Below, piece by piece: positions 9,191-19,329 of a DNA stretch of 32,502 nucleotides. The position numbers and the translations under genes are program-made. Below the pieces are notes generated by a model. The model saw nothing but the letters and a program-made list of their open reading frames with translations, searched no databases and had not been told where the DNA came from. This DNA comes from a virus. Taxonomy: Duplodnaviria > Heunggongvirae > Uroviricota > Caudoviricetes. The stretch's first letter is position 1; each line of letters starts with the position of its first letter. The DNA is taken from the IMG/VR virus record IMGVR_UViG_2778261222_000005. The stretch is one strand, 5' to 3'.

Positions 9191-9658
9191 ATGCAGACCT
9201 TCAGTGAAACAGATCTTCGCGATGCGCAGGCACTGCTGCCCGATTCCGTGCAGCAACTGATTAGCGTGATTGGCTTCCCCGCCCTGACCCGGTTGATTCG
9301 TTCTTTTGGTGGCGTGACGTTAAGCGGTAAAACCGGCGTACACGCCGAACGCACTGGCGGTGTCCATGCCATGTTACATGACGTGCTGACCGAAGACGAA
9401 ATCAACAAACTGATCCGTTTTCTTGGCGGCGCACCGTTTTACATTCCCCGTTGCGATCATGCGTTACGTGCCCTGCGTAACACCCGTTTTATGGCTGATT
9501 TACAGCAGCATGTAAAAGGCGGATGCTCACACCGGCAGGCGCTGGCACTGCTCTGTCCCCGTTACGGCATTTCAGACCGGTACGCATGGCAGCTGATACA
9601 CCGACGACAAAAACAGACTTCGCTGAAAAGCCCCACCCAGGTGGGGCTTTTTGATTAA
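9191..9658 (+). CDS. Mor/C-family transcriptional activator
   Basis: 155 aa; central LGGAPFYIPRC and C-terminal HTH-like region (ALALLCPRYGISDRYAWQLIHRR) resemble the recalled Mu Mor/C signature; GGAG 9 nt upstream. Only one Mor/C-like gene is visible in the window. Confidence 0.8.
   Translation: MQTFSETDLRDAQALLPDSVQQLISVIGFPALTRLIRSFGGVTLSGKTGVHAERTGGVHAMLHDVLTEDEINKLIRFLGGAPFYIPRCDHALRALRNTRFMADLQQHVKGGCSHRQALALLCPRYGISDRYAWQLIHRRQKQTSLKSPTQVGLFD
9627..9652 (+). terminator. intrinsic terminator embedded in the 3' end of the activator gene
   Basis: Stem GCCCCAC / GTGGGGC with short loop followed by TTTTT; overlaps the last codons of the activator gene (stop at 9656-9658). Confidence 0.6.
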
Positions 9659-9996: not shown

Positions 9997-10015
9997 GGGG
10001 GTGCTGAACACCCCC
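9997..10015 (+). promoter_or_regulatory. conserved late-promoter motif, copy 1 (upstream of lysis cassette)
   Basis: GGGGGTGCTGAACACCCCC; core GTGCTGAACACCC (10001-10013) is identical to copies at 18160-18172 and 30076-30088. Flanks form a 7-bp inverted repeat around CTGAA. Downstream CAGTACCC is shared with copy 2. Confidence 0.5.
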
Positions 10016-12321: not shown

Positions 12322-13062
12322 ATGCAAAAACAGATTATTGGTAACGCAACGTTGTATTGCGGTGATGTTCTTGATGTGCTGCCGGCGTTATCTGAACGTT
12401 TTGATGCCGTCATTACCGACCCGCCTTACAGCAGTGGTGGCACACACAAATCAGACCGCAGCATGGCCCCTTCGGACAAGTATGTCGGTCACACCCAGTA
12501 TGCCGAGTTCAGCGGGGATAACCGCGACCAGCGCAGCTGGGCATACTGGAGCACCCTGTGGATGTCCGGGGCTGCCCGCCTTGTGCGCCCCGGTGGTTAT
12601 GTCATGGTGTTCAGTGACTGGCGACAGCTTCCCACCATGACCGACGTTTTTCAGGCCGGTGGTGTGCTGTGGCGTGGTCTTGTTGTCTGGGATAAAACGC
12701 AGGCTTCCCGTGCGCCACACACCGGCTATTTCCGGCATCAGGCCGAGTATGTGGTCTGGGGCAGCAACGGAAAACTCGACAAATGTCCGCACGGTGGCCC
12801 GTTCCCGGGTGTGATTACGCAGCGTGTTGTCCCGTCCGAAAAACTGCACATGACCGCAAAGCCGGTTCAGCTGATGGCCGAGCTGGTTAAACCGCTGGCA
12901 CCGGATGCGCACGTTCTCGATCCGTTTATGGGAAGCGGCACCACCGCCATCCCTGTACTTGCCCGTGGCGGACGGTTTACCGGCATTGAAATGACTAACC
13001 AGTATTTTGATATCGCCTGCGCACGTATCGAAAAAGCGCAGGCAGAAGCAGCGCAGGTGTGA
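12322..13062 (+). CDS. orphan DNA methyltransferase (N6-adenine or N4-cytosine, PF01555-like)
   Basis: 246 aa; catalytic DPPY motif near the N-terminus (VITDPPYSS) and AdoMet-binding DPFMGSGTT near the C-terminus, with a ...TAKPVQLMAELVK segment. No adjacent restriction endonuclease gene. Confidence 0.85.
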   Translation: MQKQIIGNATLYCGDVLDVLPALSERFDAVITDPPYSSGGTHKSDRSMAPSDKYVGHTQYAEFSGDNRDQRSWAYWSTLWMSGAARLVRPGGYVMVFSDWRQLPTMTDVFQAGGVLWRGLVVWDKTQASRAPHTGYFRHQAEYVVWGSNGKLDKCPHGGPFPGVITQRVVPSEKLHMTAKPVQLMAELVKPLAPDAHVLDPFMGSGTTAIPVLARGGRFTGIEMTNQYFDIACARIEKAQAEAAQV

Positions 13063-16303: not shown

Positions 16304-17456
16304 CGATGTTGACCTGGGTTATGCGTACACCCTGAAGCCGGAAGAAGCGATTAAGTATTTCGAAAGCAAGGGATACGTCATCGGCTTCCGTTGGCACGAT
16401 GTGAAGGACATCGCACACGCCCGGGCGTTCACGGTGGCGGGCGTGCTGAAACTGGATGTTCTGAAGGATATCCGTGATGGCCTGACGGCGGCACTGGCTG
16501 ACGGCGGGACGTTCCGGGAGTTTGCCGCACAATTGGAGCCGCTGCTGGAGAAAAAAGGCTGGCTGGGTAAGCGGCTGATTGTGGACGAGGACACCGGCGA
16601 ACTGTACGGCAGACAACTGACGCCGCGCCGGTTGCGCACGATATTTGATACCAACATTCAGTCGTCATATAACGCCGGGCGTTATCAGCAACAGATGGCG
16701 AACGTGGCTGACCGGCCTTATTTTGAGCGCGTGGCGGTGATGGACCTTCACACACGCCCGAAACACGCCGCCCTGAACGGCTTTACCGCCCGGGCGGATG
16801 ACCCTGTCTGGGAGTATTTCTACGCGCCGGACGGATACGGATGCCGCTGCCGTATCCGGGCGCGTTCGGCGTCGGATGTGGAGAAATATGGCCTGACGGT
16901 ACAGAGCAGCGAGGGGCGACTGGTTGAGGTTGAGCAGGAATATGGCCAGCCGGGCCAGACCATCAGAACAATGGGGCTGAAGATGCCGGACGGCTCCGTG
17001 TATACCGCCGACCCGGGCTTCGGTTTTAACCCCGGCAAAGTGGCATGGCAACCGGAACTGGAAAAATACGATTACCGCAGCGCTCGCCAGTATGTCACCG
17101 GCACTCTGACCGGACCGGATTTTGCCCGGGGGCTGGCGAACGTCAGCGAACTGGATGCGCGCCAGCGATATCCGCTGGCCATCCGTTCACCGGAACAGGG
17201 CGCCGCCACGGGTGCTGCACGGCAGACGGTAAACCTTACGGCTGACGTCATGAAGCGCCTCAGTGCGGCAGACACGCCCCCGACCGCCGCCGACTATGTG
17301 CTGATGCAGCAGACCGTCGAACGGGCGGAGCATGTCACACAGGACGGCAACGCGTGGCGGTATGCGTTACAGTCGGGCGACCGCTGGTCGGTGGTGACGG
17401 TTGAGGATGACGCGCTGACAGACTGGGTTATGCATGATACCCCGGAGGCATCATGA
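16290..17456 (+). CDS. head morphogenesis protein (Mu F / gp30-like)
   Basis: 388-aa ORF overlapping the portal end by 14 nt; assigned by position and size, sequence features recalled for the Mu F family. Confidence 0.75.
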   Translation: MPTADDVDLGYAYTLKPEEAIKYFESKGYVIGFRWHDVKDIAHARAFTVAGVLKLDVLKDIRDGLTAALADGGTFREFAAQLEPLLEKKGWLGKRLIVDEDTGELYGRQLTPRRLRTIFDTNIQSSYNAGRYQQQMANVADRPYFERVAVMDLHTRPKHAALNGFTARADDPVWEYFYAPDGYGCRCRIRARSASDVEKYGLTVQSSEGRLVEVEQEYGQPGQTIRTMGLKMPDGSVYTADPGFGFNPGKVAWQPELEKYDYRSARQYVTGTLTGPDFARGLANVSELDARQRYPLAIRSPEQGAATGAARQTVNLTADVMKRLSAADTPPTAADYVLMQQTVERAEHVTQDGNAWRYALQSGDRWSVVTVEDDALTDWVMHDTPEAS

Positions 17457-18004
17457 GCAACGGTAAACTGGATATTAAGATTGATTTAAGCGCGTATAAC
17501 ACCACGCTGGGGAAACTGATTCGTTCCGTGAAGGACAGGCGCGACCTGATGACGGCGCTTGCTGGCTCCATGCAGGATGCGGTTGAGACTAACTTTGAAC
17601 AACAGGGTCGCCCGAAATGGATGGGCTGGAGTCCGGCTTATGCGAAGCGACGCGGCCCCGGGCAAATCCTTCAGAAGTCCGGGCGACTGGCTGCCAGTAT
17701 CCGCTCTGCGGTTAACAATAACGAGGCCACGGTCGGGACAAACGTCCGTTATGCCCGTATCCACAACGAAGGCGGCGAAATCCGCCATCAGGCACGGACG
17801 CAGAACCTGTATTTTAAACAGTACAAAAACGGCAGCGTCAGCACCCGCTTTGTGAAAAAGCGCAACAGTAATTTTGTGCAGAGTGCAACGGTCGGAGCGT
17901 ATACGGTCAACATGCCCGCGCGCCCCTTCCTTCAGCTTGTGCAGGATGACATCGACGAGCTGGAGAACACCGCAAACCGCTATTTTGCGCGTGTGATTGA
18001 CTGA
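17453..18004 (+). CDS. virion morphogenesis protein (Mu G-like)
   Basis: 183-aa ORF overlapping the upstream stop (ATGA); last gene before the central intergenic region, as for Mu G. Confidence 0.7.
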   Translation: MSNGKLDIKIDLSAYNTTLGKLIRSVKDRRDLMTALAGSMQDAVETNFEQQGRPKWMGWSPAYAKRRGPGQILQKSGRLAASIRSAVNNNEATVGTNVRYARIHNEGGEIRHQARTQNLYFKQYKNGSVSTRFVKKRNSNFVQSATVGAYTVNMPARPFLQLVQDDIDELENTANRYFARVID

Positions 18005-18045
18005 ATGGACACAAACGCGCTGTAATCGCCTGTGACAACATAAAC

Positions 18046-18061
18046 GCCTCATGGATGAGGC
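18046..18061. repeat. perfect 16-bp palindrome in the G-I intergenic region
   Basis: GCCTCATGGATGAGGC, 7-bp arms around GG; no U-tract follows. Confidence 0.6.
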
Positions 18062-18096
18062 ATTACAGCACTGCACCCCGTAAATGCTGTCAGAAT

Positions 18097-18121
18097 CGTT
18101 TTTAAAAGGGTTTTAAAAACG
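18097..18121. repeat. 25-bp AT-rich perfect inverted repeat in the G-I intergenic region
   Basis: CGTTTTTAAAA-GGG-TTTTAAAAACG (11-bp arms), followed by a T-rich tract GTTTTATTTCCCCTTTTATCC. Confidence 0.6.
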
Positions 18122-18157
18122 GTTTTATTTCCCCTTTTATCCTTTCCCGTTATGGCA

Positions 18158-18174
18158 GGGTGCTGAACACCCTC
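18158..18174 (+). promoter_or_regulatory. conserved late-promoter motif, copy 2 (upstream of head gene I)
   Basis: GGGTGCTGAACACCCTC; core identical to copies 1 and 3; ~45 nt upstream of the first in-frame ATG of the I-like gene. Confidence 0.5.
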
Positions 18175-18204
18175 CACAGTACCCCGTGTTCCCCTTCCGT
18201 CATC

Positions 18205-19329
18205 ATGCCGCGTATGAAGATGAACATTGCGGCATTAAGCCTCGAAATTACTAAAGCAACCCACAGCGAAATCCAGCTGTTTCCGGCGGGCGAGTTCAGC
18301 GCGGTGGATGGTCGCCCACATACCGATGAAGTCGAAAGCGGTAAATGGGTGCTGACCGCTGAACTGGCCGCGCAGCTTGTCGCACAGGTGGCAGCCCGTG
18401 CCACGCCTTTTGTCATTGATTACGAACATCAGACGCTGCGCGCCGTAAACAACGGCAAGCCCGCCCCGGCGGCGGGCTGGTTCAGCCAGGTGGAATGGCG
18501 AGAAGGTGCGGGCCTGTATGCCACCGGTGTGGAGTGGACGGATAACGCGGCGGCCATGATTGCCGCCGGTGAGTACAAGTTTATTTCCCCTGTTTTTGCC
18601 TACAACAAGCGCGGCGAAGTGCTGGAGCTGTTACACGCCGCACTGACCAATACCCCTGCGCTCGACGGTATGGATGCGGTCATGCTGGCTGCGGCCAGCC
18701 GTCTGGCGAGTCTGTCAACTGAAACGGAGACCACAACGGTGGATGAAGAACTGTTAAACGATTTGCTGTCCAGTCTGCGCTGGATGCTTAACCTCCCGGT
18801 TACCTCAACGGCGGAAGATATTAAAAGCGAGCTGCAAAAGGTCGTTGACATGATTTCGAACGGTCAGGGAACGGCGGCGGCATCCGTCAGCCTGCTGACC
18901 CTGCTGAATCAGAAAGACGAGCAAATCGCCAGTCTGTCAGCAAATGCCTATGACCCGACGAAGCATATCCCTCTGACAGCATATGAAGAACTTCAGGGAC
19001 GTTATGCCGTACTGGCGCAACAGTCCGGTGAGGCCGAAGCCGGGGCACTGATTCAGGCGGCGCTGTCTGACGGGCGACTGCTTCCGGCCCAGGAAGACTG
19101 GGCGAAAGATTACGCCAGCCGCGATATCAACGGCTTTAAGTCCTGGCTGGATAACGCACCGAAACTTGTTGCGCTCAGTCAGACCCAGACCGGCGGCAAA
19201 CCACCCAAAACGCCGTCGCCTGCCCCGGCGCAGATTAAAACCGGCGATGACGTCGATGTCGATATCGCCATTTGTTCAATGATGGGCGTCGATCCAGAGG
19301 ATGTCGCCCGTTACGCAGGAGACAAGTAA
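18205..19329 (+). CDS. head protease/scaffold protein (Mu I-like)
   Basis: ~375 aa; three in-frame ATGs at 18205, 18214 and 18220, none with a strong SD, so start is uncertain. The track's 18160 start would begin inside the conserved promoter motif. Assigned by size and position before the major head gene. Confidence 0.75.
   Translation: MPRMKMNIAALSLEITKATHSEIQLFPAGEFSAVDGRPHTDEVESGKWVLTAELAAQLVAQVAARATPFVIDYEHQTLRAVNNGKPAPAAGWFSQVEWREGAGLYATGVEWTDNAAAMIAAGEYKFISPVFAYNKRGEVLELLHAALTNTPALDGMDAVMLAAASRLASLSTETETTTVDEELLNDLLSSLRWMLNLPVTSTAEDIKSELQKVVDMISNGQGTAAASVSLLTLLNQKDEQIASLSANAYDPTKHIPLTAYEELQGRYAVLAQQSGEAEAGALIQAALSDGRLLPAQEDWAKDYASRDINGFKSWLDNAPKLVALSQTQTGGKPPKTPSPAPAQIKTGDDVDVDIAICSMMGVDPEDVARYAGDK

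Follow-up and report, generated by a model that had tools for sequence, protein, structure and literature searches.

Transposable phages are believed to unite their two ends by means of central gyrase sites, and to our knowledge only those of phages Mu and D108 and that of one prophage have been shown to work. Oram and Pato are said to have tested, in 2004, candidate central gyrase sites of Mu-like prophages from E. coli O157 Sakai, Haemophilus, Salmonella Typhi and Neisseria. A central position alone is no guarantee of function, since most of the substitute sites tested in Mu failed. [quoted passage not shown] These two plasmid sites, together with chromosomal gyrase sites, match a 130-bp motif composed of a central cleavage region and periodic arms (PMC6379681); they are without the extended phased right arm that is said to distinguish the Mu site. 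[quoted passage not shown] A further candidate SGS has been put forward in Pseudomonas phage Ab30, where an intergenic segment of 37 bp, situated about 150 nt from the genome middle, is free of self-insertions (PMC5977238).

Here we analyse the gap between genes G and I of a Mu-like prophage from the IMG/VR record IMGVR_UViG_2778261222_000005 (the whole stretch of 32,502 nucleotides is referred to as the window). The original prediction had singled out this gap as a candidate strong gyrase site marked by two perfect palindromes. Central gyrase sites in the G-I gaps of Mu-like phages are an established idea, and the present element is best filed as a candidate member from a distinct enterobacterial clade. 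Like the sites attributed to Oram and Pato, it comes from the same central gap of Mu-like prophages, and like that of Ab30 it was proposed from its position; Ab30, however, is a Pseudomonas siphovirus, and the evidence there consists of transposition maps whereas here it consists of comparative sequence analysis. We consider it fairly likely that the gap holds the counterpart of the central SGS of Mu.

Results and discussion

The G-I gap lies near the centre of a Mu-like prophage

The window holds a Mu-like myovirus prophage whose genes run in the order ner, A, B and onwards to a Mor/C-family activator (the Mor-family gene lies at 9191-9658), lysis, terminase, portal, F, G, I, T and tail genes. 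The gap is bounded by the G stop codon, TGA at 18002-18004, and by the ATG at 18205, which is the first in frame for I; the in-frame ATGs at 18214 and 18220 are alternative starts. The features discussed below are as follows.

17453-18004, plus strand: G-like virion morphogenesis gene (open reading frame; Pfam PF05069; Mu-type order F-G-I-T)
17999-18128, unstranded: predicted gyrase-bound segment of 130 bp, motif positions -63 to +66 around 18062, as suggested by the motif model and the Mu register
18012-18026, unstranded: Block A, CAAACGCGCTGTAAT, which would lie in the left arm (-50 to -36)
18046-18061, unstranded: GC palindrome, GCCTCAT-GG-ATGAGGC, in the left half of the predicted G-segment; E. 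coli lineage only
18062-18065, unstranded: predicted cleavage stagger ATTA, top cut 18061/18062 and bottom cut 18065/18066, each +/-2 nt, from the model maximum and the Mu register
[quoted passage not shown]
18123-18152, unstranded: T-rich tail (TTTTATTT, TTTTAT), which extends the A/T phasing of about 11 bp to about +90 and aligns with Mu CCCGTTTTATCTTCC
18158-18184, plus strand: predicted late promoter, equivalent to Mu PI, with the dyad GGGTG-CTGAA-CACCC followed by CAGTACCC
18205-19329, plus strand: I-like protease/scaffold gene (open reading frame; annotated as "phage protease" in relatives; Pfam PF10123)

The last codons of G and its stop form the far-left edge of the segment that gyrase is predicted to wrap. 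The gap had been described as carrying no open reading frame, and indeed none is kept in relatives. The G-I region is found at 94-98.5% identity in 55 of 5,426 complete E. coli genomes, including that of EPEC E2348/69. The O157 Sakai record is absent from these 55 carriers, and the present family differs from the Sakai prophage with the interchangeable site. In the complete relative from E. coli TUM1881, the prophage interrupts scpC and spans approximately L001 1832-37118 (L numbers denote lineages), or about 35.3 kb, and the G-I site lies at about 53% of that length, the Mu site lying at 48.7% of the Mu genome. A location near the middle of a genome of about 37-39 kb had been expected; the central location holds, and the size was slightly overestimated. 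More remote relatives, with G proteins that are 75-81% identical, occur in Intestinirhabdus, Trabulsiella, Buttiauxella and uncultured viral contigs, and G proteins of 51% identity are found in Klebsiella phage ST405-OXA48phi1.1 and in a contig labelled Martelella.

The gap is syntenic with that of Mu and resembles it in the right arm

In the Mu record, the stop codon of G at 17859 is followed by the gyrase cut site at 17879/17880 (20 bp past the stop), a hairpin, the late promoter PI and gene I. The hairpin is annotated there as a TransTermHP terminator at 17908-17953, at the place homologous to that of the AT hairpin in the window. The same order of G, gap, hairpin, late promoter and I is found in the window, which is thus syntenic with Mu across the gap and shares with the SGS of Mu and D108 a location in the G-I gap near the genome centre, ahead of a hairpin and PI. 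The best Smith-Waterman match between the two gaps pairs Mu 17913-17967 with window 18099-18151, scoring 40 against 20.9 +/- 3.5 for dinucleotide shuffles, a score that was reached by one shuffle in 500. The significance of this relation to the Mu SGS is modest, and the relation is confined to the right arm; beyond it the DNA of the two gaps is unalignable, with an ungapped identity of 36%.

The offset of the alignment, 186 nt, carries the Mu cleavage position 17876 to position 18062 of the window. The Mu stagger is taken here as AATC at 17876-17879, on the strength of the record annotation, of how the 133-bp Mu SGS fragment of Sutormin et al. is centred, and of the motif model described below. 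Counted from these cleavage positions, A/T junctions fall at +41.5, +53.5, +63 and +74.5 in Mu and at +41.5, +52.5, +64.5 and +75.5 in the window, so that the two right arms have phased signals of the TTTAAA type at matching distances. A divergent Mu-like prophage of E. coli TUM9757, 75% identical to the Mu gap, carries GGCGTTTTTGAAGGGGTTTTGAAGGGGG at the right-arm place, a sequence that bridges the right arms of Mu (ATTTTTAAACCGGTATTTAACGG) and of the window (CGTTTTTAAAAGGGTTTTAAAAACGG). To the left of the cleavage position, AAACGCG is found at -46 in Mu and at -49 in the window, and in Mu the ACGCG lies 86 bp, and the AAACGCG 88 bp, before the TTTTT/AAA junction. This match is only suggestive, as it was noticed post hoc and lies within coding sequence in Mu.

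The two loci also differ in several respects. Their G proteins are distant, and Mu is not among the matches listed for the window G in the phage collection. The cleavage core is AATC in Mu and is predicted to be ATTA in the window, at 17 bp and a predicted 58 bp past the G stop, respectively, and the motif-model scores are about 8.5 for Mu and about 5 for the window. The right arm of the window, unlike that of Mu, is a near-perfect palindrome. In both loci a hairpin followed by TTTTAT stands between G and the late promoter, but the outer stem in Mu contains G+C (-19.8 kcal/mol) whereas that of the window is almost all A-U (-12.3 kcal/mol). Finally, function has been proven for Mu, whereas the site in the window is predicted from sequence alone.

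The right arm is strongly phased and a gyrase-motif model peaks at the Mu-derived position

Fourier analysis of A/T content at periodicities of 10-11.8 bp ranked the 63-bp stretch starting at 18076 first of 32,440 in the window, with a best period of 11.0 bp, and placed it in the top 0.02% when compared with 200 kb of E. coli. Longer phased stretches in the gap fall in the top 0.2-0.5%, and by the same measure the Mu gap falls in the top 0.3-2% of Mu. The signals concerned are TAAAT at +19 to +23, TTTAAA at +41.5 and at +52.5, and T-tracts to about +90, which together make up an extended phased A/T right arm such as that of the Mu-type strong gyrase site.

The cleavage position was predicted with a strand-symmetric ridge model, fitted to 428 pairs of coordinate and published score from E. 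coli Topo-Seq together with the first 200 kb of W3110, which approximates the published 130-bp gyrase matrix (PMC6379681). The presence of G at position 0 and of C at position 3 confirmed its register, and in leave-one-out analysis r was about 0.85 and the rmse about 1.6. The published score is nonlinear in the 130-bp sequence (residual sd about 1.25 with 379 free parameters), probably because it is the maximum over the two strands of an asymmetric matrix. Strand assignment by EM, a linear antisymmetric term and models with shifted registers brought no improvement, and the symmetric ridge model was retained. Consensus templates, based on a strong/weak pattern or on nucleotide matches, were discarded: their correlation with the true scores was only 0.6 (r) and they ranked the Mu SGS between 335th and 800th in Mu.

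The ridge model falls short on the Mu SGS, with 8.4-8.6 against 13.3-14.3, and gives it no better than about the 7th-10th rank in Mu. It still puts this site in the top 0.03-0.04% of the E. coli background and at 0.04% within Mu, and in 199 of 200 bootstraps its highest value in the Mu gap fell on the known cleavage position. For the window gap the maximum fell at 18061, 18062 or 18064 in 154 of 200 bootstraps, and this peak coincides with the cleavage position derived from the Mu alignment (18062). Each of the two arms at the peak lies in roughly the top 1-14% of background. All class-1 relatives peak locally 40-43 bp left of the junction in Block B (scores 5.1-8.9), and the Mu-like prophage of TUM9757 scores 9.7 at -42; in the relatives with a 51% identical G protein, the -42 peak is weak or not the highest. 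An alternative register, with the first T6A4 tract of Mu placed on Block B and cleavage at 18083, was rejected, the model giving -1.6 there and the unbiased local alignment having chosen the other register. The peak score in the window, 5.1-5.7, is moderate (about 2.6% of window positions are higher), and the model therefore supports where a site would be and not its strength. The word strong in the original prediction cannot be upheld for the predicted site, since its motif score reaches only the top 2-3% compared with 0.04% for the Mu SGS; synteny with Mu near the genome centre, right-arm homology, the motif peak and the phasing all speak for the gap as the place of a gyrase site.

Two blocks at a near-fixed distance are conserved above the level of coding sequence

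A comparison with the G-I regions of related prophages had been suggested as a check. We aligned 30 distinct gaps and computed mean pairwise identity over 8 divergent lineages, with the following values.

17602-18001, G coding sequence: 0.78
18012-18026, Block A: 0.98
18027-18081, spacer including the GC palindrome: 0.44
18097-18122 (as scored), Block B, the AT palindrome: 0.86
18123-18157 (as scored), T-rich tail: 0.37
18158-18174, promoter dyad: 0.77
18214-18600, I coding sequence: 0.70

Block A and Block B are both conserved above the level of the G and I coding sequences, across several genera, and both are retained in the relatives whose G protein is only 51% identical. Block A does not vary even where an in-frame reading would allow synonymous change. 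All class-1 lineages place the T5/A4 junction of Block B 86-89 bp from Block A; in the 51% relatives the interval is shorter by about one helical turn, at 78 bp. The interval in Mu that corresponds to it, from ACGCG to the TTTTT/AAA junction, is the 86 bp given above. Within Block B the left arm is better conserved than the right; lineages L003 and L004 break its pairing and symmetry without compensating changes, and L117 shows a compensating change, AAAC-GGG-GTTT. No consistent RNA structure was found in the spacers of the other lineages (z from -1.9 to +0.6). The comparison thus upheld the AT palindrome as a conserved element, and it confined the GC palindrome to the E. coli lineage. Read as a whole, the alignment has the pattern of two constrained arms around a middle that is free in sequence and constrained in length, with a span close to the 130 bp protected by gyrase. 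The conservation of Block A, and the nucleotide-level invariance of both blocks, goes beyond what the degenerate preferences of gyrase are expected to need, and the left arm, in which Block A is predicted to lie, is reported to be dispensable in Mu; both points weigh against the gyrase reading.

Further readings that involve Block A were considered and set aside. Other lineages do not preserve the possible long-range pairing between GCTGTAAT (18019-18026) and ATTACAGC (18062-18069). A role of Block A as a transposase end-like site was not supported, since AAACGCG is no more frequent genome-wide than chance predicts and TTCTGGGC seems to be the end-binding motif. A -10 element in Block A (TGTAAT, TTGACT lying 18 bp upstream) was dropped because its position 2 does not have the essential A and the 51% relatives have no such -35.

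The AT palindrome stands out from chance and the GC palindrome does not

The two palindromes first reported in the gap, of 16 bp at 18046-18061 and of 25 bp at 18097-18121, are exactly as described, and so is a T-rich tract, which runs from 18123 to 18152. Repeats of the GC-palindrome type, with 7-nt arms and a spacer of at most 4 nt, number 19 in the window against 9.4 +/- 2.9 in shuffles, and by itself the GC palindrome is unremarkable with respect to chance. Its RNA fold has an energy of -9.3 kcal/mol (z -2.1). Variants within the E. coli lineage alter the loop or are G-U-compatible, so that the palindrome may fold as an RNA hairpin. It is absent outside the E. coli lineage in the alignment of related gaps and is probably incidental to the putative gyrase function.

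The AT palindrome can be extended to arms at 18094-18107 and 18111-18124 with 93% complementarity. Repeats with 11-nt arms and a spacer of at most 6 nt occur at two loci in the window (9626/7 and 18097), with 0.05 expected, and in none of 2000 shuffles of the G-I gap alone. No GTDB species-representative genome contains the exact AT palindrome; the G-I gap matches no Rfam family and contains no IHF or Fis consensus match and no GATC. The proposal that the two palindromes mark the site did not survive: the GC palindrome is lineage-specific, and cleavage is predicted between the palindromes, at 18062-18065. The AT palindrome appears to matter as a pair of phased TTTAAA wrapping signals in the right arm and not as a palindrome; L003 and L004 lose the symmetry without compensation.

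A second module, made of an AT hairpin and TTTTATCCTTWCCCGTT, was observed in the complete relative at 185-225 bp from the left end. It has the same orientation and a fold that resembles the Mu hairpin; no motif-model peak accompanies it, and the gyrase model gives no explanation for it.

A late-promoter motif had been noted after the T-rich tract, and this was corroborated by GCTGAACACCCTC at 18162-18174, one of three copies in the window. The other two, at 10003 (one mismatch) and 30078 (exact), each stand ahead of a late operon. All three copies share the dyad-like core GTGCTGAACAC and the motif core GTGCTGAACACCC, and GCTGAACACCC(T/C)C is present at 10003, 18162 and 30078, within the dyad GGGTG-N5-CACCC at two of the three sites. 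The copy at 10003 keeps the full dyad together with CAGTACCC, unlike that at 30078. In Mu, the C protein binds a dyad that overlaps the -35 region (PMC2582627). As a dyad site repeated before late operons, the segment 18158-18184 fits a predicted Mor/C-dependent late promoter.

Alternative readings of the gap

Invariance at the level of single nucleotides is what a sequence-specific phage or host protein would impose, and Blocks A and B might be its sites, for late-promoter control or DNA bridging, with the gyrase-like features being incidental. We regard this as unlikely. The identity of both blocks above that of coding sequence would suit such a protein, as would the symmetry of Block B, which is that of a dimer site and is restored by compensation in L117, the A-B spacing, which varies by no more than about 3 bp or else differs by about one helical turn, and the recurrence of a Block-B-like module near the left end. 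However, no candidate protein was identified, IHF and Fis are not indicated by any consensus match in the gap, and L117 and the 51% relatives have Block B at other distances from the promoter. A specific binder would also leave unexplained why the Mu cleavage register and the motif peak point to one and the same nucleotide.

A related possibility, which we hold to be distinctly improbable, is that Block A (AAACGCGCTGTAAT) and Block B (CGTTTTTAAAA-N3-5-TTTAAAAACG) are read by a factor other than gyrase, or that the AT palindrome forms a cruciform under supercoiling. The object to be read would be a bipartite element with its blocks 86-89 bp apart, about one helical turn less in the remoter relatives, of which AAACGCG would be the echo in Mu.

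The AT palindrome and T-tract could also be an intrinsic terminator and nothing else, ending the late transcript that runs from lysis to G and insulating the I-operon promoter, with no relation to gyrase. The RNA hairpin of -12.3 kcal/mol (z about -2.3) has GGUUUUAUUU directly after it, the Mu record has its TransTermHP terminator at the homologous place, a similar hairpin-plus-U module, folding like the Mu hairpin and in the same orientation, is found close to the left end of the relative prophage, and folding predicts a hairpin in 9 of the 12 lineages examined. Against this, the U-tract after the hairpin is confined to the E. coli lineage (including L001) and L113, and is missing in L003, L004, L005/L118, L114, L115, L117, L006 and L174, all of which keep Block B. 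A terminator scan did not call the stem, which consists almost wholly of A-U pairs, and the combination typical of an intrinsic terminator, a G+C stem and a U-tract that are both kept in relatives, is not found for the AT hairpin. The stronger conservation of the left arm of Block B and the uncompensated loss of pairing in L003 and L004 likewise speak against a terminator, and termination explains neither Block A, nor the near-fixed A-B distance, nor the match with the Mu cleavage register. As the whole function of the element, termination is therefore hardly probable. Beside its putative gyrase role, the AT hairpin with GGUUUUAUUU may serve the E. coli lineage as a weak terminator upstream of the late promoter; such an added, lineage-specific role is likely.

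That the palindromes are chance features or decaying remnants in a gap whose only function is the late promoter is very improbable. It is plausible for the GC palindrome alone, which is unconserved and of a kind found 19 times in the window; the spacer and the tail, too, evolve almost freely. For Blocks A and B this reading is in effect refuted, since they are better conserved than the flanking coding sequence in several genera, and a perfect repeat with 11-nt arms is rare.

A model for the candidate central gyrase site

We therefore return to the reading of the gap as the counterpart of the Mu site. Gyrase binding and cleavage in the gap, and an effect on transposition, are what we infer from the features above, and the mechanism is borrowed from the Mu model. 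Host DNA gyrase would bind about 130 bp, roughly 17999-18128, and cut near 18062-18065. The right arm, with TAAAT, the two TTTAAA signals and the T-tracts, would wrap on the C-terminal domain of GyrA, and Block A would sit in the left arm. Processive supercoiling from the central site might then extrude a loop with the site at its apex, and this loop would bring the prophage ends together for assembly of the transpososome after induction.

Conclusion

To conclude, we describe here a candidate central gyrase site in a family of Mu-like prophages of E. coli and other enterobacteria. The Mu SGS is used in plasmid engineering as a supercoiling element, and the present element, if confirmed as a gyrase site, might likewise provide a compact supercoiling element for that purpose. 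The prophage family offers a second, independently diverged version of the central site, with a conservation map made up of two blocks, a free spacer of near-fixed length and a predicted cleavage position, and the clarity of this map and of that position allows precise experiments on which parts of such a site matter. Under the improbable reading by a factor other than gyrase, or through a cruciform, it would be motifs such as Blocks A and B, and not bendability alone, that make the central sites of transposable phages special, and this would touch on a long-standing question, why the stronger gyrase sites of pSC101 and pBR322 do not replace that of Mu.

Similarity between the G-I gap and the prophage left end

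Outside the window, in the prophage of E. coli TUM1881 (L001), we found a module, TTTTAAATGCTTTTAAAAAAGTGTTTTATCCTTACCCGTTTT, at L001 2015-2056, ~185-225 bp from the left end of that prophage. This module resembles the AT palindrome (Block B) and T-rich tail of the gap between G and I, with an alignment score of 40 against 22.6 +/- 3.8 for shuffled sequences, and none of 300 shuffles reached that score. The 17-mer TTTTATCCTTWCCCGTT is confined to two places, the left-end module and the G-I gap. The module has a fold like the hairpin of the Mu G-I gap; in Mu itself, the gap and the left end of the phage share no comparable similarity.

L090 (GCA_958334415.1) derives from the prophage by deletion: it lacks most head and tail genes and has its lysis gene directly adjoining G, but the G-I gap is still present. 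In L112, an IMG/VR contig, the gap sequence is replaced downstream of the GC palindrome.

In every lineage of the closer relatives (class 1), exactly six in-frame codons separate the G stop from a TAA (window 18002-18025), the stretch ending ..AAC GCG CTG TAA, which is the nearly invariant Block A. Since this stretch is conserved at the nucleotide rather than the amino-acid level, it looks unlikely to be a read-through extension of G.

Published gyrase scores

The gyrase data were taken from the supplementary Trusted_GCSs table of PMC6379681 and not from the window sequence. The published 'score' is non-linear in the 130-bp sequence, leaving a residual sd of ~1.25 with a full position model, and the reported mean for the genome (-2.7) exceeds both the genic (-4.0) and the intergenic (-6.4) means (PMC6379681). 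The non-linearity and these means fit a score computed as the higher of the two values that a markedly asymmetric matrix gives for the two strands.

Late promoters and other features of the window

Features of the window were located as follows.

12322-13062: N6/N4 DNA methyltransferase gene (Pfam PF01555)
9626-9651: inverted repeat within the 3' end of a Mor/C-family ORF (9191-9658)
10003-10015: late-promoter motif, preceding the lysis genes
18162-18174: late-promoter motif, preceding I
30078-30090: late-promoter motif, preceding a baseplate gene (30129)
18205, 18214 and 18220: the three in-frame ATGs of I

The methyltransferase gene lies in the late operon, flanked by a DUF1804 gene and the large terminase. 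The Mu record has no methyltransferase gene annotated at the corresponding position.

The repeat at 9626-9651 is perfect, with arms of at least 11 nt, and is the sole other such repeat in the window besides that of the G-I gap. It is followed ~350 bp downstream by the first late-promoter motif and may serve as a terminator or a regulatory hairpin.

The late-promoter motif, GCTGAACACCC(T/C)C, occurs in three copies. The full dyad GGGTG-N5-CACCC is present in two of these, at 10003 and 18162, each with CAGTACCC downstream. The third (30078) lies within the tail/baseplate block, a location unlike that of PP of Mu. At the start of I (window 18197-18222), the conserved GTCATCATG includes a -10-like CATCAT (18201-18206); late-promoter transcription may therefore begin no further upstream than the first ATG of I, with a leader that is very short or absent.
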